Notes under the pieces: generated by a model
Told to the model about the DNA's origin: nothing
Database searches by the model: none
The model's input: only the letters and a program-made list of their open reading frames with translations
Shown here: positions 1,906 through 16,164 of the stretch, in pieces
Position numbering within the stretch: the first letter of the stretch is position 1
Layout of the letters: every line of letters begins with the position of its first letter
Assembly: GCA_945898205.1 (NCBI GenBank)
Contig: CAMDHO010000004.1
Span: forward strand, 7,830 to 71,829
Direction of reading: 5' to 3'
Length of the DNA stretch: 64,000 nt
Origin: Chlamydia trachomatis
GTDB taxonomy: Bacteria; Chlamydiota; Chlamydiia; Chlamydiales; Rhabdochlamydiaceae
Translations under genes and position numbers: made by a program

Positions 1906-3168
1906 TTAAGTCGTTATGACAGGGGATAAAATGTCTAAAGGCTCTGAAAGGTCTCCGCAATAAACAAGCAGCTTTCCATCCGCTTGTTTTTCAAATTCTA
2001 TACCATTTACCGGAAAATAGATATTTCCGTTAGAGAGCAAGAAGCAAGGTCTTGGAGGATCCCATCTTACCAATCGATGTTGATTCAAGTCTTTTTCAAA
2101 CATGACATTTTCATTTCCATATTTTTCTGAATGAAAACTTTGTAAATAAGGTGAAAAATCAAAATCTGCAGGAAATGGAATAATATGAGGGGAATCTTTT
2201 TCAGGATGAAGAACTATTTGTTCTAGGTTTTTTCCTATCATTGATGGATCAACATCGGTGGTATTGGTAAGTAGAACAATTAGGAGATCACTTTCCGGAT
2301 ACTTACGGAATTCTGAGGCAAAACCGAACATTCCTCCGGAATGAGCAATCTTTTTTTGTCCCATATCTGTAGTTATATTAAGGCCATACCCATGATTATC
2401 TAAATTAGGTGTAGTCATTTGATGGATAGAAGCTTTACTTAAAACAGGAGAGTTACCATCTAAAACTCGACTCCATTTAGATAAGTCTTCAACCGTTGAA
2501 ACTATTCCTCCATCTGCAAAACATAGATGAGCATCATCTCCAGGTTCTTTTTCAAGACTCGTCATCTGTTCATTTAAACGATGACCTCGGGCCATCCCTA
2601 AAGTTTCATCATACATTTTATTAGGAATGCAAGAATGCGTCATTCCAGCTGGGGTGAAAATTTGATCTTGGATAAATTCTTGATAGGACATGCCGCTCAT
2701 TTTCTCTATAATTTTTCCTAATAGTAAATATCCAGTATTACTGTATGCGTATTGTTCTCCAGTCGGAAATTCAAGGTCTTTTTCTTTGAAGTCTAATAAA
2801 ATGCCATCTACTGTTAAAGCTTCAGGATCATAATTTTCCATAGATGTGTAATCAGCGATGCCCGATGTGTGAGACAAAAGGTGGTGGGGAGTTAAGTCTT
2901 TATATTTTTCAGATTGAAAGTCTGAGGGGAGATATTGATTAATCGGCGCATGTAAATCAATGGCCCCTGATTCTACTAATTTCATAACTGCTGCTGCGGT
3001 AAATTGTTTAGTTACAGAACCGATATGGAAGGCGGTAGAAGCGGTGTTGGGAATTTCGTCTATAGCTTGCCCATATCCTTTGCAAAGGATTGTGGTATCT
3101 CCCTGTTTTACAAGAACTGTGCCAGAAAAAAAGGCAGAATCTCTTATAGATTCGAGATGTTCGTTCAT
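1906..3168 (-). CDS. beta-lactamase-family (class C / PBP4*-like) serine hydrolase, body of the gene
   Basis: SxxK motif (FHIGSVTKQFTAAAV), YxN motif (YSNTGYLLLG) and an HxG/KTG-like motif (IAHSGGMFGF). The frame stays open upstream of the listed Met through to 3315 (see findings). Confidence 0.85.
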   Translation of the reverse strand: MNEHLESIRDSAFFSGTVLVKQGDTTILCKGYGQAIDEIPNTASTAFHIGSVTKQFTAAAVMKLVESGAIDLHAPINQYLPSDFQSEKYKDLTPHHLLSHTSGIADYTSMENYDPEALTVDGILLDFKEKDLEFPTGEQYAYSNTGYLLLGKIIEKMSGMSYQEFIQDQIFTPAGMTHSCIPNKMYDETLGMARGHRLNEQMTSLEKEPGDDAHLCFADGGIVSTVEDLSKWSRVLDGNSPVLSKASIHQMTTPNLDNHGYGLNITTDMGQKKIAHSGGMFGFASEFRKYPESDLLIVLLTNTTDVDPSMIGKNLEQIVLHPEKDSPHIIPFPADFDFSPYLQSFHSEKYGNENVMFEKDLNQHRLVRWDPPRPCFLLSNGNIYFPVNGIEFEKQADGKLLVYCGDLSEPLDILSPVITT

Positions 3169-3233
3169 TTTCTGAGCGGCGATTCTTTGCTCCGCTGTAA
3201 GACCTATTCCTTCAGTTCCTAATATAGAAGTTC

Positions 3234-3497
3234 CTATACGTGATTCTGATGTATTACTTGACGGAGCTGCAGACGCAGAAAGTTCATATTTCTTTTCGTC
3301 GGGGGGGGGGCTTTTTTAAAAACGTCTTTCGAAATAGAAGAAATCTTTTCCAGCTCTCCGGTTTTTGACGCGGTTAGAGGCAGAGTTTGCTGAGATCGAT
3401 CAACGTATTTTGCATCATTAACATCCACAGGAAACCATCCTAAATAGTAATGTTTAATTATAATGACATAATAGCATAGTAAGAAAATTTTACGCAC
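3234..3497 (-). pseudogene. probable detached 5' part (GTG start plus hydrophobic signal/anchor) of the beta-lactamase-family gene, out of frame because of the G10 tract
   Basis: The N-terminus (RKIFLLCYYVIIIKHYYLGWF) is hydrophobic. The ORF reads into the homopolymer at 3301-3310 and terminates shortly after. The downstream gene's frame is open from the other side of the tract. Confidence 0.5.
3301..3310. repeat. G10 (C10 on the coding strand) homopolymer tract
   Basis: Counted directly: ten consecutive G at 3301-3310, flanked by c at 3300 and c at 3311. Confidence 0.95.
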
Positions 3498-3863
3498 TGT
3501 ATAAAATTCTGTGTGATAACGAATTCTAGTTAGTTCGTGAAATTGTTTAGAAGATCTCTATTCTTTTTTCTATGCCCAAGTATTGCATAGTAGGGATCAA
3601 TTTTGGGGTCTCCATAGCAAATAATTCACCTTGGCAGATATTTGAGGGTTTTTGTATGATTTGGGTATCCTTACAACAGGGAGGGTACAATGAACATAAC
3701 AAAGCAATCAGACTTTATGCTTCTCAAAGCCAATCCTTGTCATTCCCATCATCATTTCCATCATAGTTAATCTTATTTCTTTTTTTTGAATTCTAGTTAC
3801 CAGAATCAAAAAAAGTTACGTTTTTTATTTTTTTACATTTTTAATTTTTTTTAAGAGGTCTTT

Positions 3864-4637
3864 ATGAAAAGAAATCTATCTATTTTTTTTGTTGTATTTT
3901 TTTGTTGGGCAAAAGCGTTTGCAGGGCCGCCACTTGTAATAGGAACGACTAGTGGTTATGCGCCTTATGTCAGTTTGGATGCAAAGGGGGAGTATGAAGG
4001 TTTTGATATTGATATGGCTAAGCTACTTGCTGAAAAACTCAATCGAACTCTTGTTTTAAAAGACTTGGGAAGTATGCCAAGTCTTATGGTCGGTTTAAAG
4101 CAAGGAAAGATTGATGCGTTAATTTGGGCTGTTTCGATTACAGAAGAGAGAATGAAAGCTTTTGAAATGGTCTACTATCAAGGGGAAAAAGAGACTCAAA
4201 TGCCATTTCTTTTTTGGAAGGAGATCCCCGCTACTATCCAATCTATTGAAGATTTTGAAAAGGATGTTAAAAAAGTCATCTGTATTGAATCGGGGACTTG
4301 GCAAGCCTCTGTTTTAGAGAAATTCCCCAAAGTTTCTATCAAAAATCTAGATAAAATCATGGATGGTATTATGGAAATTAAATATGGCAAATCTTGGGCA
4401 GTAGCTATAGATCCGTCACTGGTTCCTCGTTTTACAGCGCAATATAGTGAAATTAAAGTGCTGAATGTTTCTCTCCCATCTAGTGAGCAATCACTTGGAA
4501 ATGGTATTTGTATTGCTAAAACAAATCAAAAGCTTGCAGGGGAAGTAAAGATTGCGATTGAAGAACTTCGGTTAGAGGGTAAAATTCGAGAATTAGAAAA
4601 AAAATGGAATCTAATTAAAGAAGGCGGAGAACTTTGA
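3864..4637 (+). CDS. artJ: amino-acid ABC transporter, periplasmic substrate-binding protein (family 3, ArtJ/GlnH-like)
   Basis: Signal peptide, then LVIGTTSGYAPYVSLDAKGEYEGFDIDMAKLLAEKL, a typical SBP_bac_3 N-lobe. Followed by permease and ATPase genes. Confidence 0.8.
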   Translation: MKRNLSIFFVVFFCWAKAFAGPPLVIGTTSGYAPYVSLDAKGEYEGFDIDMAKLLAEKLNRTLVLKDLGSMPSLMVGLKQGKIDALIWAVSITEERMKAFEMVYYQGEKETQMPFLFWKEIPATIQSIEDFEKDVKKVICIESGTWQASVLEKFPKVSIKNLDKIMDGIMEIKYGKSWAVAIDPSLVPRFTAQYSEIKVLNVSLPSSEQSLGNGICIAKTNQKLAGEVKIAIEELRLEGKIRELEKKWNLIKEGGEL

Positions 4638-5302
4638 ATAATTATTTTACGCTCTTATCTGGATGGTGCCCTTTACTTTTTAAAGGGGCACTTATGACAA
4701 TTCAGGTGCTTTTTTTTTCCGCTTTTGTAAGTCTTTTTATAGGACTTACTTTTGGGGTCCTTTCTTGTTCTCGCCTTCGATTGCCTTGGATTTCTTCTTT
4801 GATAGAAGGCATTGCATTCGTTTTTAGAGCAATCCCTTTTGTAGTTCAACTTTTGATTGTATATTTTGTTCTGCCAGATCTTTTGGGATTTGATATAGAA
4901 CCGTTTCCTGCGGCAGTTATATCTCTTGGGATGTGTTCTTCGGGATATGTAACGCAAATTGTTCGATCAGGAATCAATACGATCCCAATATCTCAATGGG
5001 AGGCGGCTTTTTCTTTGGGATATTCTAGGTTTCAAAGTCTTATCTATGTGATTTTACCACAAGTTTGGAGGAATATTCTCCCTTCGTGCACCAATGAAAT
5101 AGAGTCTCTTTTGAAAAGCACGGCCATGGTTTCTTCTATTGGGATGTTAGAGCTGACTCGAATGGGTATGAACTTAGTTTCCAGAGAAATGCAGCCGGTT
5201 CCTATTTATCTCACGATAGCTTTTTTCTATTTGTGTATGTCGGCCATTTTGAATCTGGTTACTCGGAGCTTAGAGCGGAGGATTGCTTATGTTAAGTATT
5301 AG
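4634..5302 (+). CDS. amino-acid ABC transporter permease (HisM/GlnP-type)
   Basis: Multi-TM protein containing an EAA-like loop (QWEAAFSLGYSRFQSLIYVILPQ). Overlaps neighbouring genes as in an operon. The TTG start is uncertain; an alternative ATG lies at 4694. Confidence 0.8.
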   Translation: MNNYFTLLSGWCPLLFKGALMTIQVLFFSAFVSLFIGLTFGVLSCSRLRLPWISSLIEGIAFVFRAIPFVVQLLIVYFVLPDLLGFDIEPFPAAVISLGMCSSGYVTQIVRSGINTIPISQWEAAFSLGYSRFQSLIYVILPQVWRNILPSCTNEIESLLKSTAMVSSIGMLELTRMGMNLVSREMQPVPIYLTIAFFYLCMSAILNLVTRSLERRIAYVKY

Positions 5303-6029
5303 AAATGTTTCTTTGGAGAAAAAGAAAGGAGGAGACTCTGCTTCTATCTTAAAGGAGATTTCTTTGGATGTTCCCTTAAGAAGAACGACTCTTTTTTTGG
5401 GGAAAAGCGGAAGTGGTAAAACATCTCTCTTGCGCTGCATTGCGCAGCTTGAAAAAGAATATAGTGGAAATATTACTTATGGAGAGAAAAGCCTTTTAAA
5501 ACTCGCAGCTCAAGATAGATGTCAAATTTTAGGATTTGTTCCTCAATCCTTTGCGCTATTTCCGCATATGAATGTTTTAGAAAATTGTATACAGCCTCTT
5601 AGGCGGAGGTCAGTAAAAAAAGGAAAAGAACTTTATGAAGAAGTGGAAGAAACGCTTTCGTCGTTAGGCCTGGAAAAGTATGCGTTTTCGATGCCAGCAG
5701 AACTTTCAGGAGGACAGCAGCAGAGAGTGGCTATTGCAAGAGCTCTGCTTTTAAAACCATCTTTTCTTTTATTTGATGAACCTACTTCTGCTTTGGATCC
5801 AGAAAATACAGAACTTTTTCAAAAAATAGTTCAACGGCTTTTAAAAGAAGGCAAGGGAGTCCTTATTTCAACGCAAGATATGGCTTTTGCGATGAGTGTT
5901 CTGGATCGAGTCTTTTTTTTAGAAGAAGGAGCTTTAGTCGAAAGTTATGATCTAAGTGAAAAAAAAGGAATGAATATGGGGAGTAAACTTAAGAGTTTTT
6001 TACCGGATGTAAAGCCATTGCTTTTATAA
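5283..6029 (+). CDS. amino-acid ABC transporter ATP-binding protein (GlnQ/ArtP-type)
   Basis: Walker A (GKSGSGKTS), ABC signature (LSGGQQQRVAIARAL) and Walker B (LLFDEPTSALD). Confidence 0.9.
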   Translation: MLMLSIRNVSLEKKKGGDSASILKEISLDVPLRRTTLFLGKSGSGKTSLLRCIAQLEKEYSGNITYGEKSLLKLAAQDRCQILGFVPQSFALFPHMNVLENCIQPLRRRSVKKGKELYEEVEETLSSLGLEKYAFSMPAELSGGQQQRVAIARALLLKPSFLLFDEPTSALDPENTELFQKIVQRLLKEGKGVLISTQDMAFAMSVLDRVFFLEEGALVESYDLSEKKGMNMGSKLKSFLPDVKPLLL

Positions 6030-6077
6030 AGATAGAGTTGCTATGTTTTTTGTATTTAGCTGAAATAGGATATTAGA

Positions 6078-6995
6078 ATGCGTAAATTATGGACGGTATT
6101 TTGTGTGTTTGTTTGGAGCTCTGTATTTTCTACTGAAGTAGCCACTTGGTCTTTTAGCGATGTGAATTCGGGATGGAACAGCGATTCTTTAGTTAAAATG
6201 TACTTCCATCATTCTGAAATGCAGAGACAATGGGCTTGGGAGCTTTTGGGAAGATCTCCTTTTACAGGGTATGAGAAGATTTTAGATTTTGGATGTGGCG
6301 ATGGAAAGATTTCTGCCGAGATGTCTCATTTGACGAGACATGGAAAAGTGGTAGGAGTAGACATTTCTAAGAAAATGATTCATTTTGCACATATTCATTT
6401 TCCTCCAAGCTTATACCCTAGTTTAGAGTTTAGAGAGAGTGATTCTTTGACTTTAGCTGATCTGCAAGAGAAAGAAGAATATGATATGATTTGTAGTTTT
6501 GCAGTATTTCATTTAGTAGCAGATCCTCTTGAGGTATTAAAGAATTTAAAAACGAATCTTAAGCCTGAGGGAAAAATTTTATTAGTCATTCCTGCAGGAG
6601 AAAACCCCGTTTTTTATCAGGCGGCCACTGAAATGTTTGTTAAGTATAATTTAGAAATTCCATGGGCTACAACAACAGGTTTAAAAAAAACTACAATGAG
6701 GACTTTAGAAGGGGCTTCTTTTTTTATGAGGGAAGCAGGTTACTCTATAGAATCTATAGAGCTTATTAACAAAGCAAGTGCTTTTTATGATTTAGAAGAT
6801 CTCATAGCGTGGATGATAGGCACAATTACGGCCAACTGGAAGATTCCAGTTTCTATGACACAAGCTTTTTGCTCAAATCTAGTCCATAGGATGTATGAGT
6901 TGAATCCATCTATGATCGATGAAGAAGGCCGTGTTCACTTTGGACTGTCGCGTATTTGTGTTATCGCGCATCCTAAAAACAAGAGTTCTACATGA
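6078..6995 (+). CDS. class I SAM-dependent methyltransferase with N-terminal hydrophobic signal-like segment
   Basis: Motif I (ILDFGCGDGKIS) followed by VVGVDISKKMI. The N-terminus (MRKLWTVFCVFVWSSVFSTEVA) resembles a Sec signal peptide. Confidence 0.75.
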   Translation: MRKLWTVFCVFVWSSVFSTEVATWSFSDVNSGWNSDSLVKMYFHHSEMQRQWAWELLGRSPFTGYEKILDFGCGDGKISAEMSHLTRHGKVVGVDISKKMIHFAHIHFPPSLYPSLEFRESDSLTLADLQEKEEYDMICSFAVFHLVADPLEVLKNLKTNLKPEGKILLVIPAGENPVFYQAATEMFVKYNLEIPWATTTGLKKTTMRTLEGASFFMREAGYSIESIELINKASAFYDLEDLIAWMIGTITANWKIPVSMTQAFCSNLVHRMYELNPSMIDEEGRVHFGLSRICVIAHPKNKSST

Positions 6996-7546
6996 TTAAA
7001 ACGGAAAGGTTAATTTTAAGGCCGTGGCAAGAAGCAGATTTAGAGCCCTTTGCAAAACTTAATGCAGATTCCCGTGTTATGGAATACTTCCCTAAGACAT
7101 TGACATCGATAGAGAGTGATGCATTGGCCCAATCTAAATCAGAGCATATTCGAGAATATGGGTGGGGACTATGGGCTGTATCTTTAATTGGAACGGGTGA
7201 ATTTATTGGCTTTATTGGATTAAATGAAGCCCCTGATTTATTCAAAGAGCCTGTTGTAGAAGTGGGATGGAGATTAGACTTTAACCATTGGGGAAAAGGC
7301 TATGCTACAGAAGGGGCAAGAGTTGCTTTGCAGTTTGGATTTGAAGCGTTAAAATTAAACGAAATTCTATCTTGGACTACAGAGGCGAATATGAGATCTC
7401 GGGCTGTCATGGAAAAAATTGGAATGCAGCATGATCCAAAGGATGATTTTGATCATCCTAAACTTTTAAAGGATCATCCTCTAAAAAGACATGTGCTCTA
7501 TCGCCTTACTAAAGAACTTTTTTTTCGTTCCCGTTTCCTTAATTAA
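6992..7546 (+). CDS. GNAT-family N-acetyltransferase (RimJ/RimL-like)
   Basis: Typical N-terminus (TERLILRPWQEADLEPFAKLNAD) and a core (WGKGYATEGARVAL...) characteristic of the Acetyltransf_3-type GNAT fold. Confidence 0.8.
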   Translation: MIKTERLILRPWQEADLEPFAKLNADSRVMEYFPKTLTSIESDALAQSKSEHIREYGWGLWAVSLIGTGEFIGFIGLNEAPDLFKEPVVEVGWRLDFNHWGKGYATEGARVALQFGFEALKLNEILSWTTEANMRSRAVMEKIGMQHDPKDDFDHPKLLKDHPLKRHVLYRLTKELFFRSRFLN

Positions 7547-9865
7547 GGCTATAGACTCGATAACCAAGGATCGAAGTGGAGGAGTTTTTAAACAAACAGC
7601 GCCCTCTTTAGTGATGAGAGACTCCCCATGGATCCAGAGTTGTTCTAAGGGGTGGTGTTGTAGGGCTGAGAGGACTTTGTCGCTAAGGTGAGGGCAGTCT
7701 TTGAGTACTAAACGACGTAAATGGTTACTGTTTTGGAAGAAATGAAGGAATGCTTCTTCAGTGATATTGGGTCCTTCAAATAGTTTAAAGTGAGACAATC
7801 GGGGCCCAATTCGTTTTAGCCCTTGGCTGGTCAAATTTCGGCCGTTTAGTGCAAGATCTGATAAATTTGGGCAAGCATGAAGAAGTAGGAGTAGTCCTGT
7901 ATCTGAGATTTGATGAGCAGAGGAGAGGTCTAACTTTTGAAGGTTTTTAGGGACTCCTTTTTCAAAGAGATCATCAGTGAGATCTGTGATTCCCTTGAGG
8001 TAAACTCTTTCTAAATAAGGGCACTTTTGAAATAAACTGGTAATCCCATAATCTGTGAGCAGTAAGCAGTTTTCGAGTCGTATTTCTCGGATTGCTTCAT
8101 GAGCGGTGTTTATTAGTTCCTGATCGAAAATTAGACTTTCTGAGAAATCAAGTTCAACATTATCTAGGAGAGGTGTCGTTTTTAAAGATAGTTGACTATA
8201 GTAGGCGTCAATAGAAGCAAAAAATTGCTCAGATTGTTGATGAAGGTATTCTTCTATTTCTGGATGAAGTGCTGCAATATTATGGATTTCTTGAGGGTCT
8301 TGTATTAAGTGATAGAGTTCTCCGCTTATCCATTTCCAGGGACCTGTTCGCGCGGCCATAAACCCTTCGGAGTAGGGGTTCTGTAGGAAAATTGTCCTGT
8401 CTTGATTTTCTCTTAGCAATGAATCCCCCACATGAGGCAAGTCTAGTTTGAGATTTAATAGATCGATTATAGTGGGCATCAGATCGACTTGAGAACTTAA
8501 AGTGTCTATTTCTTTTGGTTGAGTGATATTGCCATCTGCTAAAATAAGAAGAGGAATATGCACGTTTTCTTCGAAAAGAAATCTTGAATTACAGAAGTTG
8601 TCTTGGTGTTCTCCCATCGGTTGCCCATGATCTCCGAGAATGAATAGAATTGTTTTTTTGCTAAGTTGTTTTTCTTTTAAGAGATCGACAAAAAGGCCGA
8701 GGCAAGAATCTGTATAATGAATTGTTTGTAAAAAGCGCTCTTGAGGATGATTTGGAGGGAATCCAAAAGAGGGCGCATTATAATGTTTTGGTAAGAGCCA
8801 AGGATGATGGTTTGAGATAGTAAAGAGGGTTAAAAAAGTTGGTTTTTTTTGGTTTTCTAGCCAGTTTATTGAATAGTGCATTAAATGTTCATCGTCGATT
8901 CCCCATCCAAAACAAGGACTTGTACTGATATTGTGATGGTCATAAAGTTCGTCAAAATGCGGCTTTAAAAAATCTTTTTGACGGTCAAAGCATAGTGATC
9001 CACTTTGTTGAAAGGATGTTTGATATCCAGCGCGTTTCAGAATTTCGGGTAATCCAAAAAAGGGAACCTTTACATAAGGTTTTAATCCTTCTGCGGAGCT
9101 GCCGGGTGGAATTCCAAAAAGTGCCGATAAAAGAGCTCGATAGGTTAATGTTCCATTTGAATAAAATCGAGAAAAAAAGAATCCTTCTTGTTTTAGTTTT
9201 TCAAAATGGGGTGTGGATTTAGTTCCTGTTGCTTTTTGGCCAAATGATTCTAAAAAAAGAAAGATAATGTGGGGAGGCTCCTTCATATTTTCTAAATTTA
9301 AAAGTTTAGGCCCTGAGAAATGGAAGGAGTTTGGGATAGGGGATGTATCGCTTTTCTTCCCTTTTATGTGTTTTTGAAGATTAAGCATTTCTTGAAATAG
9401 AGGGTTGTTTACCGCGTATGCTTGAGTTCCTAGTTGAGAAGTTCCTATAAAGGCTATAATGCCAGAGCCTAAAAAAAAAGGAATATACCACAGGGGGAAG
9501 TTAAGGGAAAATTGAGATAAAAACAGTATGTGCACGCTGATAAGGCAAGTGCTGATTGCTAAAAAAGGGAATAGCCCCATCTTACGAGCTGAAGAATAGA
9601 GTGATGTTAAGTCTCTTATATGACGTAAATAGCAAAGCTTCATTCGTAAATGCATATGATGCATGAGCCAGGCGTCGAGCAGCAAATAGAGATGAAAAAA
9701 GAGCCCTAGGCCGGCCGTTAAAAAAGGCGAAATAGGAATCAAAAGACAAATTCCTAAGGTTAAGAATAGGTCTTGAGAGAAACCTACCCAATAAACATGA
9801 GAAAATAAAGAAAATCGGAATCTTAAAAAAACTGGAATTGTCAAATAAAATAATAGAAATAACAT
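7481..9865 (-). CDS. membrane LtaS/MdoB-type sulfatase-family (phosphoglycerol/alkaline-phosphatase superfamily) enzyme fused to a C-terminal leucine-rich-repeat domain
   Basis: About 5 N-terminal TM helices. Sulfatase-family motifs: IIFLFLESFG, SNGTLTYRALLS, ISNHHPW, LGDHGQPMGEH, VDLMPTIIDLL. The C-terminal ~200 aa holds repeats of the type CPxLxxLxLxxCxxITDxGL (e.g. CPYLERVYLKGITDLTD, CPNLSDLALNG, CPHLSDKVLSAL). Confidence 0.8.
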   Translation of the reverse strand: MLFLLFYLTIPVFLRFRFSLFSHVYWVGFSQDLFLTLGICLLIPISPFLTAGLGLFFHLYLLLDAWLMHHMHLRMKLCYLRHIRDLTSLYSSARKMGLFPFLAISTCLISVHILFLSQFSLNFPLWYIPFFLGSGIIAFIGTSQLGTQAYAVNNPLFQEMLNLQKHIKGKKSDTSPIPNSFHFSGPKLLNLENMKEPPHIIFLFLESFGQKATGTKSTPHFEKLKQEGFFFSRFYSNGTLTYRALLSALFGIPPGSSAEGLKPYVKVPFFGLPEILKRAGYQTSFQQSGSLCFDRQKDFLKPHFDELYDHHNISTSPCFGWGIDDEHLMHYSINWLENQKKPTFLTLFTISNHHPWLLPKHYNAPSFGFPPNHPQERFLQTIHYTDSCLGLFVDLLKEKQLSKKTILFILGDHGQPMGEHQDNFCNSRFLFEENVHIPLLILADGNITQPKEIDTLSSQVDLMPTIIDLLNLKLDLPHVGDSLLRENQDRTIFLQNPYSEGFMAARTGPWKWISGELYHLIQDPQEIHNIAALHPEIEEYLHQQSEQFFASIDAYYSQLSLKTTPLLDNVELDFSESLIFDQELINTAHEAIREIRLENCLLLTDYGITSLFQKCPYLERVYLKGITDLTDDLFEKGVPKNLQKLDLSSAHQISDTGLLLLLHACPNLSDLALNGRNLTSQGLKRIGPRLSHFKLFEGPNITEEAFLHFFQNSNHLRRLVLKDCPHLSDKVLSALQHHPLEQLWIHGESLITKEGAVCLKTPPLRSLVIESIALIKETGTKKKFFSKAIEHMSF

Positions 9866-9880
9866 GTTTTGAGAATAGAA

Positions 9881-9915
9881 GCAGTGTCTTTTTTTTTAAA
9901 GTAAAAAGACACTGC
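9881..9915 (-). terminator. hairpin between two minus-strand genes (putative terminator of the cysJ-like gene)
   Basis: gcagtgtc (9881-9888) pairs with gacactgc (9908-9915). The stem is extended by T-run/A-run pairing and lies 8 nt downstream of the stop at 9923. Confidence 0.5.
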
Positions 9916-9922
9916 GTATAAT

Positions 9923-11107
9923 TTAATAGACGTCTGTCATGTACTGTCTAGAGGTTCGAAGATGTTTTAAATAAGCTCGAGCTTCGACTTCAGATAGCTT
10001 TCCATATTGTTCAATGATGGTAAGTAGGGTAGCTTCTACATCTTTTGCCATTTTACTTGCATCGCCACATACATAGAGGTAAGAGCCGTTAGAAATCCAA
10101 TTCCATAGTTCTTCTGCATTTTCTAAAATTTTATGTTGTACATATTCTTTGGAGTCTTGATCTCTAGAAAAAGCGGTGGTAAGCTTTAGTTGATTTTGAT
10201 TTTCTAGCTCTACTAAATAGTCTTCATAAAGAAAGTCGTATTTGCGGGTGCGTTCTCCAAAAAAGAGCCAATGCTTTCCTGTGGCTTTGTCACAGAGCCT
10301 CTCTTGAAGAAAGGCTCTATATGGAGCAACTCCAGTTCCTGGGCCAATCATAATTAGATTTTGAGAGGAGTCTTCAGGAAGTTTAAAGTGAGCGGCTGGT
10401 TGTATATAAATAGGGATTGCTGTTTGCTTTTCAGTAGCTAAATGGCAAAGAAAGTGACTTGCAACTCCATAGCGGATTTCTTCTCCGTGAGGATAAGAAA
10501 GAAGGGCTACAAGAAGGTGTAATTCTGTTGGGTGGGCTTTTACAGAAGAGCTGATCGAGTAAAAACGAGGAAGAAGCGGTGTAAAATGCTCTGCAATTTC
10601 TTGTAAAGAGCTTGGGCTTTCCTGTAAAAGAAGCAGTATGTCGATTAAGTCTTTACCTTGAATAAATTCAGCTAAAGCCGCTTTGTTTTCTGGTTCTAAA
10701 AGTATCCTTAATTTTTCTATTTGTAGAGGCTTTTGGCTTTTTTGAAAAAAAAATCGGATTAAAGATGTATTAATTCTTGTAAAGTTGACTTTGTGGACTA
10801 GATAATCTTCAGAAGTCATTTCTTTTTGAGAGCGAGGGTCGATCAAGAGGTCATGAGGTTTAGTAGAAAGAAGAGATAAAAATTTCCTTACTAAGTGTGG
10901 GTCGTTTTGAGGGAGTATTCCGATGGAATCTCCTGGGTGAAATATGAGATCAGACCCTTGGATGTCCAAGGAGATGTGGTATGTCTTTTTTGATGAATTC
11001 GGGTGAGACAAAAGAAATTTTTCTTTCAAGAAGACAGAGTAAGGATCGGTCTTGCTATAGTGCTCTGGAATGTTTTTTTTTGTGTTTTCTAAATTGCTCA
11101 TGGACAA
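9923..11107 (-). CDS. CysJ-like FAD/NADPH-binding flavoprotein reductase (ferredoxin-NADP reductase-type module, no FMN/flavodoxin domain)
   Basis: RFYSISSS (RxYS FAD motif), GPGTGVAPYRAFLQER, LFFGERTRKYDFLYEDY, YVCGDASKMAKDV and the C-terminal ...TDVY. The N-terminus (YSKTDPYSVFLKEK...) aligns by eye with the start of the CysJ FAD domain. Confidence 0.8.
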   Translation of the reverse strand: MSMSNLENTKKNIPEHYSKTDPYSVFLKEKFLLSHPNSSKKTYHISLDIQGSDLIFHPGDSIGILPQNDPHLVRKFLSLLSTKPHDLLIDPRSQKEMTSEDYLVHKVNFTRINTSLIRFFFQKSQKPLQIEKLRILLEPENKAALAEFIQGKDLIDILLLLQESPSSLQEIAEHFTPLLPRFYSISSSVKAHPTELHLLVALLSYPHGEEIRYGVASHFLCHLATEKQTAIPIYIQPAAHFKLPEDSSQNLIMIGPGTGVAPYRAFLQERLCDKATGKHWLFFGERTRKYDFLYEDYLVELENQNQLKLTTAFSRDQDSKEYVQHKILENAEELWNWISNGSYLYVCGDASKMAKDVEATLLTIIEQYGKLSEVEARAYLKHLRTSRQYMTDVY

Positions 11108-12804: not shown

Positions 12805-12961
12805 AGGGGTGTATCCTTGTCTTTTCGTGATAAATGAAATTAGAAAGCAATTGTAGCATGTTAAGCTTAGAATGCAAGTATAATTACAGCTTCGGATTAG
12901 GTGCTTTGCACGCATCAATCAAAATAAGATTTATCATTTTTTAGGTCTTAAGTGGGGGCGA

Positions 12962-14260
12962 TTAGGAAAGCAGCCACTTCCAGATAGGAATAATCTTAAT
13001 TTGTAGGAGCATATCTTTTTCCTGGATCTCTTCAATCCCTTCCTCGTCCAAAGTAAGAATTAAGCCTTCTGAAAGTTGATGGATTTCTATTGCCTCAAGA
13101 AGTCCGCGAAACTCTCGTTTCTTTACTTCAGGGTCATGAAGTGTTTTAGTAACTTGTATAGCTTCTGAAATTTTAAGTTCTTTTTTCACAAGAAAATCGC
13201 ATTCATATTTCTGTTTATGAAAATAGATCTCTTTATTTCGACGTTTCAATTCGTTATGCACTAGGGTTTCTAGAATTCTTCCGCTGTCTTCGGAGAATCG
13301 AAATGAAATAGCGACTGCAAGCCCTACATCTGCAATATATATTTTTTTGTCACTTCTAAGTTGGTTTTTTAGAGAATAGTCAAATTTGTAAAGTTCATTA
13401 AAAAGGAAAATTTCGTAAAAGTGTGAGCAATAATCCATAATTGTTTGTGGATGCATGCCAAGTGCTGTAGCGCATCCTCTATAGCTAAAAGCTTTAGCGC
13501 TATTTGTTGCGAGATAAATGCCTAATTCTTTGATTTTGCTTAAATTTACTTCGTATCTCGAAGCGATGTCTTTGTAAATAAAATCTTCAAAATAGCTAAT
13601 GAGCAGTTCTTTTTGTAAAACAGGGCGTAAAGCAACTGCAGGGAAAGCCCCTAACTCAAGATATTGAATAAAATGACTTTTTATAAGAGTTTCTGTTTTG
13701 GAAGAAACAGGAAGTTTTGTGTCTTTTATGGATTTAAATTGTAAATATTCTTCAAAAGAGAGGGGAAAAACTTTTATAGTAATATTTCTTCCAGTTAAAA
13801 GCGTAGCGAACTCTTTTTTAATAAAAGAAGAATTGGATCCACTAATCCAAATTTGTGGGATTTCTTTCCGGTCATGCATCTTGCGAATAAAAGAGATCCA
13901 ATCAGGGCAGTTTTGAATTTCGTCTATAAAGAGGTTCTTTACCGGCAGGATCATTTGATAGGCTTCTACAATTTCATTCAGGCTGTGTTTTTTCAGGACT
14001 TCGTCTTCAAAGTTTATATATAGAACGGTGTCTCCCATTTTTAATATCTTTTCAATGACTTGGTAAAGCAGAGTGCTTTTTCCAACTCTTCTAGCTCCTT
14101 CCAGAACTTTTACCTCGAGGATTTGAAGATAGGGCTCGAGAAGGTAGTTGCGAGAAAAGCCCGACAACTCTTCTGGAAACTGTCCTTTTATCCAAGGATT
14201 CCAATCATAAAGAGACTTTAGAATTGCTTCTTTCATAAAAACTCGCGAATGTGTTGACAT
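12962..14260 (-). CDS. AAA+ ATPase of the AAA_14 + DUF4143 type (COG1373-like)
   Basis: Walker A (GARRVGKSTLL), Walker B-like (LFIDEIQ), and a size and C-terminal region typical of this family. Confidence 0.7.
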   Translation of the reverse strand: MSTHSRVFMKEAILKSLYDWNPWIKGQFPEELSGFSRNYLLEPYLQILEVKVLEGARRVGKSTLLYQVIEKILKMGDTVLYINFEDEVLKKHSLNEIVEAYQMILPVKNLFIDEIQNCPDWISFIRKMHDRKEIPQIWISGSNSSFIKKEFATLLTGRNITIKVFPLSFEEYLQFKSIKDTKLPVSSKTETLIKSHFIQYLELGAFPAVALRPVLQKELLISYFEDFIYKDIASRYEVNLSKIKELGIYLATNSAKAFSYRGCATALGMHPQTIMDYCSHFYEIFLFNELYKFDYSLKNQLRSDKKIYIADVGLAVAISFRFSEDSGRILETLVHNELKRRNKEIYFHKQKYECDFLVKKELKISEAIQVTKTLHDPEVKKREFRGLLEAIEIHQLSEGLILTLDEEGIEEIQEKDMLLQIKIIPIWKWLLS

Positions 14261-14394
14261 ACTTCAATATATCATTTTTTGTATTTTTGATATAGTTCAA
14301 TATGTCAAAAACGCAAACTTATCATTTTAAGCAGTTTGTGAAATCCAACCGGAAGGACACGAATGTAAGGAGAAATTACTTGATGAAAGTTTTC

Positions 14395-16089
14395 TTAGCT
14401 AAGATCTAACCCATCTATGTTTGGAGGAGCCGTTATATCGTGCCAGAATTTTCTGATTTCATTGATCCCGAGTAACGAGTAACCAATGGACAGTGATCCT
14501 AAAGAGAAATATACTACTCGGGGATCTGTTTTTCCTAAGAGCGCGGACATGCCTAGAGGTAGGGATTCCCCTATTGCGTCACGAATTGCTATTCCTTGCG
14601 CTAAAGATACTCGGCTATTTAGAAGAGAATTGGGTTTGTGTTCATTGAGGGGTTTGGCGGTTTGCATTTCATTTTTTAGCACTGCAATAGTAAAGGTGAA
14701 TCCTGCGAGCCGAGCAATACTGAGAGCTATTTCATTCATAGGGATGAGCGCTCTAAGAGCGGCTACTGCAGTAGCTTGAATTACTCCAGTGGCTTGTAGA
14801 TGCAATGTTAAAGAGGTTTTAGGAGGGGGTTGATCTGCATTGCTATTTTTTCTGAAAAGCCAGCCGGACACTTTGGAGTACGTCTTTATTGCTACATAAG
14901 AAGCGGCTAATGTCCCAAGTGAGATAACGCCTACAACCCGATCTTCATTTATGCCATACTTATATTTAGCGACGCAATATTGTATTGCTTCAGAGGATTT
15001 CATGGCTTCCATGCTAACCTGAAACTGCATGGCTGGTAAAAAATCAACAAAATGATTTTCTCCGAGTATAGGAGCGAATCCCATCACATAATCGACACAG
15101 TTGTCGTAAAAGGGGTTGTATTTCGTGTCTATTTCATCGGATTGTTTTTTGCTCCAAATCGATTCTGCTTGTTTATCACTGATATGAAAAGTAGACTTAA
15201 GATATAAGTTCTCGTCTGAATATTTTTTTCCTAGGGAAGAGTCATTAACAATTACTCCGGATCCTTCAATCGATAGATTTGGATAACGGCCAAAGCTTTC
15301 CTGATAAGAGGCGCCATTTGCACAGGAAGAACAGTCTAGTCCTACAAACGAATGACCTGGATTCATGTAAACTGTGAATCTATTATCTGACGGGGCTTTT
15401 TGAGCTCGGGCGGCAAGAGTGGCATGTACTTGTTTGGCGTCTGTATGTCTTAAAGTATGTAGAACTCCCTTTGTGTCTCTGACAATTGTATTGCAATAGC
15501 TTTGAGCCGGAGTGGAAAATTCATCTAAAGGGATTTGATCTAGAAGAGAAATTTCGCTAGGAACGCTACAATCTTCTAAAGTTTGTGCAGTAAAATAAAC
15601 ATTTGGATTTAAAGCAACTTGGCTTTTAGGGGTTCTTTCTAAGATGAAATTAACAGTTTCTAGAGCTCCATTTCTAGCGGCGATATGAAGAGCTGTAATA
15701 TTTCGCTGATGTTGTTTTAACGGATTTAATATGCCGCGAATTACAAAAGTCCGTATTATAGTTTTTGCTAAATCTTGATCTTGATCCAGTAGAAGATAGC
15801 CTGAAAGCCGAGACGCAAGCGTCGGGTCCTCTAAGATTCCTGAACTTTCTATGGAAGCTCCGTAGCTTAGTAATATACTTATAGCGGGTAAGTCAAGTCG
15901 TTCAGCAGCATCGTATAGAGCTGTTTTTCCATCTATTCCGACGCAGTTGAGGGCTTCGACAGCTCCTCGGGCAAGGGAAGTTTGCAGGTCCTCCAAAGAA
16001 GGGTCGGGGCTATACAGATGAGGTTCAAAATCCCATGAGTTTGCGTGGCTCCAATATGTAGAGCAGTTTAGTTTTTGCGGGATTGTCAT
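14395..16089 (-). CDS. ankyrin-repeat protein with central His/Cys permuted-papain-like (PPPDE/DeSI- or LRAT-like) domain and C-terminal hydrophobic helices, paralogue A
   Basis: Ankyrin motifs: GKTALYDAAERLDLPAISILLSYGASIE and NITALHIAARNGALETVNFIL. The core is NPGH(246)SFVGL ... ESFGRYP ... GSGVIVND ... KYNPFYDNC(331)VDYV. At least 4 hydrophobic segments lie after residue 380. Confidence 0.6.
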   Translation of the reverse strand: MTIPQKLNCSTYWSHANSWDFEPHLYSPDPSLEDLQTSLARGAVEALNCVGIDGKTALYDAAERLDLPAISILLSYGASIESSGILEDPTLASRLSGYLLLDQDQDLAKTIIRTFVIRGILNPLKQHQRNITALHIAARNGALETVNFILERTPKSQVALNPNVYFTAQTLEDCSVPSEISLLDQIPLDEFSTPAQSYCNTIVRDTKGVLHTLRHTDAKQVHATLAARAQKAPSDNRFTVYMNPGHSFVGLDCSSCANGASYQESFGRYPNLSIEGSGVIVNDSSLGKKYSDENLYLKSTFHISDKQAESIWSKKQSDEIDTKYNPFYDNCVDYVMGFAPILGENHFVDFLPAMQFQVSMEAMKSSEAIQYCVAKYKYGINEDRVVGVISLGTLAASYVAIKTYSKVSGWLFRKNSNADQPPPKTSLTLHLQATGVIQATAVAALRALIPMNEIALSIARLAGFTFTIAVLKNEMQTAKPLNEHKPNSLLNSRVSLAQGIAIRDAIGESLPLGMSALLGKTDPRVVYFSLGSLSIGYSLLGINEIRKFWHDITAPPNIDGLDLS

Positions 16090-16164
16090 TATTATTTCCG
16101 TATTAAGTTAATTTAAAATGTATATTGTATTTTTTAAAAAACGTTATTTAACCAGCGAGTTTTC

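Follow-up and report, generated by a model that had tools for sequence, protein, structure and literature searches.

The stretch analyzed here, called the window throughout, comprises 64,000 nucleotides of contig CAMDHO010000004.1 (positions 7,830 to 71,829 of the forward strand, assembly GCA_945898205.1), listed as Chlamydia trachomatis and placed by GTDB in the Rhabdochlamydiaceae. At 7481..9865 of the window the (-) strand carries a complete gene of 794 codons plus a stop codon (TAA/TAG/TGA, 7481-7483), the product of which joins an N-terminal membrane domain, a catalytic domain of the alkaline phosphatase (AP) superfamily and a C-terminal array of leucine-rich repeats (LRR). We refer to it as the LtaS-LRR gene, and all coordinates given below for its parts are on the (-) strand. 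Pfam, matches in the PDB and an AlphaFold2 (AF2) model, built with 35 homologues as input (mean pLDDT 86.5, pTM 0.79), agree on the three-part architecture, as an earlier note made from the letters of this DNA had proposed. The open reading frame (ORF) of 794 aa has no internal stop in an ORF scan. Upstream of the start the frame is open for 10 more codons only (804 aa), so the N-terminus can be extended no further. A scan for promoters and terminators around the gene gave nothing better than chance.

The integrity of the fusion was corroborated independently. The junction between enzyme and LRR (residues ~560-570, nt ~8155-8190) lies in a continuous frame in the window, in an independently assembled ENA contig and in all colinear homologues. 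The ENA contig has 1 mismatch in 3599 nt over window positions 7239-10837, covers the whole gene at 99.97% identity and encodes the same product. That an assembly chimera or a missed stop joins two genes, a caution attached to the earlier note, is hardly credible: no point in its support was found, the same ORF stands on an independent contig, and unrelated assemblies supply dozens of colinear homologues. It is practically certain that the fusion is real and that the family assignment is correct.

The catalytic domain, delimited by Pfam, PDB and Foldseek matches, occupies residues 198-560 (8186..9274). The Pfam Sulfatase family (PF00884) is matched at residues 198-471 with E=7e-47 and 160.6 bits, against a cut-off of 25, over profile positions 1-300 of 301. 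In the AF2 model the alpha/beta domain spans residues 199-560, with 535-560 as its final helix. The best sequence matches in the PDB are VP1736 (3lxq, 2e-30), Listeria LtaP (1.5e-15) and LtaS (about 1e-13). Foldseek also places 3lxq and LtaS on top, with a TM score of ~0.75 on the target, and aligns the full length, membrane domain included, with PbgA (6v8q, 6xlp). The catalytic segments that the earlier note had named are all present as LESF (E206), NGTLT (T241), NHHPW (H353/H354) and GDHG (D412/H413), and they are invariant or nearly so among 35 homologues. In the alignment to Staphylococcus aureus LtaS (eLtaS, 2w5q, where the residue number is the chain index + 217), E206 (9248..9250, invariant) corresponds to the metal ligand E255, H353 of NHHPW (8807..8809, invariant) to H416, and D412-H413 of GDHG (8627..8632) to the metal ligands D475/H476, D412 being invariant and H413 conserved in at least 90%. 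The LtaS nucleophile T300 aligns with either T239 or T241. We favor T241 (9143..9145) as the predicted nucleophile because it aligns with the nucleophile Thr of LtaP and EptA, is invariant and takes the first position of helix 241-250. It sits in a GTxT motif, as in EptA.

The region around the nucleophile reads NGTLTYRAL, with Thr, and the C/S-x-P-x-R formylglycine motif is absent. The protein is therefore not a true (S1) sulfatase, and its likeness to sulfatases is limited to the C-terminal half. All NCBIfam matches are partial and score well short of their cut-offs. The LtaS equivalog leads with 80.9 bits against 970; behind it come choline sulfatase and arylsulfatase (matched in the C-terminal half only), OpgB, LapC/YejM and EptA/MCR. 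The LapC/YejM/PbgA model gave 27.8 bits against a cut-off of 825, while among the EptA/MCR models NF028537 gave 19.3 against 500 and EptA 17 against 660. Judged by these scores, the LtaS-LRR enzyme belongs to no curated equivalog among those scored. When the family was aligned with E. coli LapC and EptA by hhalign, the catalytic domains alone aligned (87-95%), and GTLT paired with GTAT of EptA. The LtaS/MdoB/EptA-like assignment made in the earlier note stands, as a Thr-nucleophile member of the AP superfamily with metal ligands and nucleophile present, and on these residues we predict with good confidence that the enzyme is catalytically competent.

The membrane domain covers residues 1-145 (9431..9865). 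Hydropathy and the AF2 model give five transmembrane (TM) helices, at residues 2-15, 23-40, 47-71, 98-117 and 127-145, in line with the estimate of about five in the earlier note. The protein is hydrophobic from residue 2 onward. Hydrophobic segments are confined by hydropathy to residues 1-143, and the AF2 model has no TM helix past residue 145. In the model TM2-3 and TM4-5 are tight hairpins, and the long loop between TM3 and TM4 holds two short helices (77-82 and 86-95). This loop 3 (residues 72-97, 9575..9652) contains 6 K/R, and together with loop 1 (R15, R17) it supplies almost all positive charge found in the membrane domain. The linker that follows (residues 146-197, 9275..9430) is modeled as two short helices and then coil, and is the least conserved stretch of the protein (26% mean pairwise identity).

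The C-terminal domain, residues 565-780 (7526..8173), is a cysteine-containing LRR array of the FBXL type with 9-10 repeats and without an F-box, as defined by PDB matches and the AF2 model. It is followed by a short tail (residues 781-794, 7484..7525) of variable length; some homologues have 1-2 extra repeats. The model shows 9-10 strand-helix repeats over residues 571-793 with a period of 22-26 residues, the LRR strands lying at 571, 594, 620, 644, 670, 692, 718, 742, 766 and 791. The family consensus, LxxLxLxxCxxLTDxGLxxLxxxCPxL, is of the cysteine-containing type with a repeat of 24-26 residues. Single-sequence Pfam LRR matches remain under the gathering cut-offs (best PF24758, 24.4 bits against 27). 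Human FBXL2 (6o60_C) is matched with E=3.4e-15 by the single sequence and with E=3.2e-71 by the family profile, where it is the best match in the whole PDB, followed by FBXL17, RAD7, TIR1, SKP2, COI1 and KDM2B. The eukaryote-like, FBXL-type repeat that the earlier note had read from the letters is thus borne out by the FBXL2 matches and the modeled repeats. No F-box was detected in the protein by Pfam at E<=1. A HMMER search in which the LRR piece was compared with 1.8 billion representative proteins returned 6110 relatives at E<=1e-3. Outside the fusion, its closest relatives are metagenome proteins without names, one of which carries the annotation 'FBXL2/20', and a single amoebozoan protein. 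When the LRR piece alone was searched by word index, a 130-aa fragment was the only match. There is about an even chance that the LRR binds a protein partner or substrate, as predicted.

The gene is no isolated case. A genome scan with one genome per species gave 370 related loci, and the locus counts reported here refer to the best 80 of these 370. The same three-part order occurs in about 50 protein clusters at 28-60% identity. The LRR-bearing clusters number 48, and 53 of the 80 fetched loci hold an LRR-bearing copy. By their titles, almost all of the 80 loci are from metagenome-assembled genomes (MAGs) of Chlamydiota (Rhabdochlamydiaceae, Parachlamydiales, Simkaniaceae and Neptunochlamydia); a few LRR-less relatives are found in MAGs of Planctomycetes, Gemmatimonadota and Victivallales. 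Among 301 genomes sampled across the phylum, 73 have a match, all in the same order. The family is found almost only in environmental Chlamydiota, where the fusion that the earlier note had seen once is widespread. Even among close relatives the distribution is patchy: three genomes from the genus to which the window's genome belongs (G130, G148 and G194) have no homologue at E<=1e-10, which makes the gene accessory. The window's genome has one copy.

In a maximum-likelihood tree of the catalytic domain, all LRR-bearing proteins and 12 LRR-less ones form one clade, with the LRR-less proteins nested inside. This nesting indicates that the fusion is old and that the LRR was later lost in some paralogues. 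In the subfamily of the window's gene (support 98/100) all 30 of 30 proteins bear the LRR. Mean pairwise identity within this subfamily is 58% for the catalytic domain, 42% for the LRR and 32% for the membrane domain. By this measure the LRR is under purifying selection, unlike the expanded chlamydial F-box/BTB-LRR families, which diverge rapidly (Domman et al. 2014, PMC4209131). We found no paper on an LtaS-LRR fusion, on LtaS homologues in Chlamydiae, on 3LXQ or on phosphoethanolamine N-methyltransferases (PMT) in Chlamydiae, which agrees with the statement of the earlier note that it knew of no characterized example.

Some chlamydial genomes carry the family in tandem. At G045:C1:1155510-1163389 and in other genomes of that family there are arrays of two or three paralogues. 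These combine an LRR-less copy of ~657 aa with one or two LRR-bearing copies of 812-852 aa, and among the fetched loci several of this kind have Simkaniaceae in their titles. The LRR-less homologues from MAGs of Planctomycetes, Victivallales and Gemmatimonadota (L048, L066, L067, L075, L076, L089 and L090) are placed together with some LRR-less metagenome proteins within a clade that is otherwise chlamydial. The presence of non-chlamydial sequences there suggests horizontal transfer, in either direction, or mis-binned contigs.

The orientation of the protein in the membrane was approached by counting K+R in each loop, for the family in columns set by the helices of the AF2 model and over the 28 members with complete N-termini. 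The window protein has 0 in the N-tail, 2 in loop 1, 0 in loop 2, 6 in loop 3, 0 in loop 4 and 3 after TM5. The bias is reversed in 28 of 28 members, with a mean of 0.75 K+R in N-tail, loop 2 and loop 4 together, against 7.18 in loops 1 and 3. With the same script, E. coli EptA (4, 1, 1, 1, 5, 4) and E. coli LapC (4, 1, 2, 2, 7, 2) come out canonical. The bias is also canonical, N-in/C-out, in another membrane protein of the sulfatase family encoded by the window's genome (5, 0, 2, 2, 5, 5). This paralogue of 633 aa (G000:C38:7490-8362, locus L100:763-2664) has LapC/YejM/PbgA as its best NCBIfam match, partial at 3e-13, and from its sequence is probably the LapC-like protein of the genome. A wider comparison took the fetched loci with five detected TM segments. 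There the bias is reversed in 18 of 18 LRR-less chlamydial proteins (1.5 against 9.6 K+R) and in 7 of 8 LRR-bearing proteins (2.9 against 7.6), and in none of the 8 non-chlamydial ORFs from Planctomycetes, Gemmatimonadota and Victivallales (8.8 against 4.1; 30-35% identical by tblastn).

Four non-chlamydial homologues were aligned, and their TM helices correspond one-to-one with those of the window protein. The alignment is anchored by motifs common to both sides: P..LR where TM1 ends, QDLF where TM2 begins, D..L...LRM within TM3, SSA.ELG ahead of TM4 and Y..NN.LF behind TM5. Compared with these four, the N-tail, loop 2 and loop 4 of the chlamydial proteins have lost K/R, whereas loop 3 has gained them. 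The gain in loop 3 by itself could be a lipid-binding adaptation, but the systematic loss on the opposite face is the pattern predicted by a topology inversion. Taken with the positive-inside rule, the reversed bias places the catalytic domain and the LRR in the cytoplasm. Unpaired Cys are modestly more numerous in the chlamydial catalytic domains (4.0 against 1.7), which, together with the cysteine-carrying LRR type, agrees weakly with the cytoplasmic side. No conserved disulfide pair that could mark the compartment was seen in any group compared. The enzyme is thus predicted, with somewhat better than even confidence, to face the cytoplasm with its N-terminus out. Of the topology given in the earlier note, one part holds: helix 5 is the last TM segment, which keeps the LRR on the same side as the catalytic domain. 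That this side is periplasmic or at the surface does not agree with the bias of the 28 members, and the idea of an enzyme that modifies the envelope or displays a host-like module to the host becomes doubtful, since the charge bias predicts the cytoplasm.

The enzyme is most likely a metal-dependent phospho-head-group transferase or hydrolase with a Thr nucleophile, acting on the leaflet that its soluble domain faces. By analogy with LtaS and EptA, T241 would attack a phospholipid of the membrane at the phosphodiester of its head group. Diacylglycerol would be released and a covalent phospho-head-group intermediate formed, from which either an acceptor or water would take over the phospho-head-group. 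Tethered behind the catalytic domain, the LRR may hold a protein partner, either acceptor or regulator, at the active site. With catalytic domain and LRR in the cytoplasm, the enzyme would act on the inner leaflet, as a mirror image of LtaS, EptA and LapC. A head group resembling phosphoethanolamine or phosphocholine is a speculative choice and rather unlikely to be right. The explanation as a whole, an inward-facing phosphotransferase of the inner membrane with an LRR that holds a partner, is slightly favored.

Several observations weigh against this explanation. To our knowledge, every characterized member of the class (LtaS, EptA-C, OpgB, LapC/PbgA and BcsG) has an extracytoplasmic catalytic domain, and the positive-inside rule is statistical. 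The K/R-rich loops, which are on the side of the active site, could alternatively form a surface that binds anionic lipids. The base of the tree is a polytomy, in which the group with canonical bias may be either sister to or nested in the group with reversed bias, and the change could have run in either direction. The glycerol-phosphate pocket of LtaS (H347/D349/W354/R356) is replaced by Q287/G289/D294/K297 and is not conserved; at 287 the family consensus is His and the window protein has Gln. Gene context is not conserved across the family, and distant relatives are without the neighborhood seen in the window. A genome search found neither the PMT-like gene nor the NSS transporter gene, both of which accompany relatives as described below, in the window's genome (93% complete), so their link to head-group metabolism is not simply transferable to the window's gene. 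The canonical topology would fit the first of these points. Under it, catalytic domain and LRR would be periplasmic and the head group would be moved from a phospholipid of the outer leaflet to an envelope acceptor, either lipopolysaccharide, glucan, or a peptidoglycan-associated or periplasmic protein, with the LRR selecting a periplasmic or outer-membrane protein. It is the orientation of all studied relatives, and the five TM helices with a long TM3-TM4 loop resemble LtaS/EptA. EptC and PptA are relatives that modify proteins, and such enzymes can use protein acceptors. However, the reversed bias holds in all 28 members, whereas controls and non-chlamydial homologues are canonical. The loops that would then be cytoplasmic are nearly without positive charge, and several unpaired Cys are present in catalytic domain and LRR. 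We regard the canonical topology as a possible but unlikely alternative.

Two further explanations are considerably less probable. The full-length Foldseek match with PbgA, which includes the TM domain, would suit a non-catalytic sensor or scaffold like LapC/PbgA, in which the AP-like domain binds lipid and the LRR relays a signal to a partner protein; the LRR itself suggests protein-protein signaling. This is improbable, as the nucleophile Thr and every metal ligand are kept invariant or, at H413, nearly so in the 35 homologues, the LapC score is far under its NCBIfam cut-off and the genome already has a separate LapC-like gene. Very improbable is export as an effector into the inclusion membrane or another membrane of the host, with enzyme and LRR facing the host cytosol. 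Such a role would explain why the family is essentially limited to obligate intracellular Chlamydiota; the two tight hairpins recall bilobed Inc domains, an LRR of the FBXL type would find host targets, and the charge bias is compatible with a cytosol-facing C-terminus. Against it, hydrophobicity sets in at residue 2, so that an N-terminal type III signal has no space, and the protein has five TM helices and 794 aa and lacks an F-box to engage the host SCF. Its membrane domain is homologous to proteins of free-living Planctomycetes and Gemmatimonadota, and its LRR is moderately conserved and not fast-evolving.

Known systems resemble the protein in part. LtaS and LtaP of Firmicutes (2w5q, 4uoo, 4uop) have the same five N-terminal TM helices followed by an AP-superfamily domain, with the structural similarity given above, and E255/T300/D475/H476/H416 correspond to E206/T241/D412/H413/H353. 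Identity is however only 17-20%, the LtaS NCBIfam cut-off of 970 is not reached, and the LtaS TM-domain family (PF27449) is listed for matches of the Firmicutes type and for no chlamydial homologue. The glycerol-phosphate pocket is not kept, and the chlamydial protein has a C-terminal LRR and the opposite predicted orientation. Its host is diderm and lacks lipoteichoic acid. VP1736 of Vibrio parahaemolyticus (3lxq), an uncharacterized AP-superfamily protein, is the best match of the catalytic domain in both sequence and structure, but is without an LRR and has Ser at the position of T241. EptA/MCR and LapC/YejM/PbgA share the architecture of five TM helices and an AP domain, EptA also the GTxT motif and PbgA the full-length structural similarity. 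In these, just the catalytic domains align by hhalign, the scores are under the family cut-offs, the charge bias is canonical (N-in, C-out) and there is no LRR. Cysteine-containing LRRs of 24-26 residues are also found in FBXL2, FBXL17, SKP2 and TIR1, in the GALA proteins of Ralstonia and in chlamydial NEX1 (Domman et al. 2014, PMC4209131). In contrast to these F-box/LRR proteins and effectors, the window protein has no F-box, BTB or U-box, carries its LRR on a membrane enzyme instead of a ubiquitin-ligase adaptor, and is encoded by a single-copy gene and not by an expanded family. Chlamydial Inc proteins have an N-terminal type III signal followed by a bilobed hydrophobic domain. The window protein has two tight TM hairpins, but its N-terminus is hydrophobic from residue 2.

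LtaS/EptA-type enzymes are the textbook outward-facing modifiers of the envelope and are drug or resistance targets, as with LtaS inhibitors and MCR colistin resistance. If the predicted orientation is true, the LtaS-LRR protein would illustrate how a large membrane enzyme with several domains has inverted its topology in nature, and an inward-facing clade would point to new lipid head-group chemistry in Chlamydiae. If instead the canonical orientation is true, the protein would be the first periplasmic LRR of the FBXL type linked to an envelope transferase. The fusion offers a testable handle on the reuse of host-like interaction modules by Chlamydiae outside the ubiquitin system. The architecture itself is already in databases under automatic names ('sulfatase-like hydrolase/transferase', 'Lipoteichoic acid synthase 2'). 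Its chief interest lies in the prediction of inverted orientation, drawn from sequence and consistent across the family.

Gene neighborhoods in relatives add two associations. Beside homologue P0009 there is a 217-aa gene (L098:7345-7998, (-) strand) that matches Arabidopsis PMT1/PMT2 (5wp4, 5wp5) with E=2e-42. Such PMT-like genes encode 217-225 aa and match the first methyltransferase domain of the plant phosphoethanolamine N-methyltransferases. A phmmer search of all ORFs found one directly adjacent in 13 of the 80 loci, and 13 of the 14 copies stand beside an LRR-bearing copy. Besides L098, such genes are seen in L019, L021, L023-L026, L029, L034, L045 (two copies), L049, L050, L063 and L092. 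Unsupervised clustering of neighbors detected, in 26 of the 80 loci, a same-strand gene for a transporter of the NSS/SNF family (PF00209), separated by a median of 4 nt (for example L097:8665-10035 and L037:4731-6110). It is beside an LRR-less copy in 16 cases and an LRR-bearing copy in 10, ~4 nt apart or overlapping, and is probably an operon partner of the LtaS-like gene in these relatives. The NSS association is stronger than the PMT-like one. Both genes handle small cytoplasmic amines or phospho-amines and fit loosely with an inward-facing head-group enzyme. Tentatively, and with less confidence than the explanation favored above, Chlamydiae may have flipped a whole LtaS-type clade and then fused it to the LRR. 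The result would be a partner-steered enzyme of the inner leaflet, coupled in relatives to PMT-like and NSS proteins, for example in a route from phosphatidylethanolamine to phosphocholine.

The context of the gene in the window gives no functional hint. It is preceded on its own strand, at a distance of 57 nt, by a gene for a cysJ-like FAD/NADPH reductase. At its 3' end (7481-7546) the LtaS-LRR gene overlaps by 66 nt a convergent GNAT (Acetyltransf_3) gene at 6992-7546, beyond which is a gene for a generic class I methyltransferase (6078-6995). The latter was considered as a PMT-like candidate and rejected, since it is of a different family. The closest relative (P0003, locus L015, 60% identity) has the same neighborhood, recJ-trmA-tsp-gltX-reductase-gene-GNAT, including the convergent GNAT neighbor. 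In L015 (genes at 2657-6362) tsp and gltX are adjacent, whereas in the window a stretch of ~5.5 kb (12950-18410), by this comparison a candidate accessory insertion, separates them.

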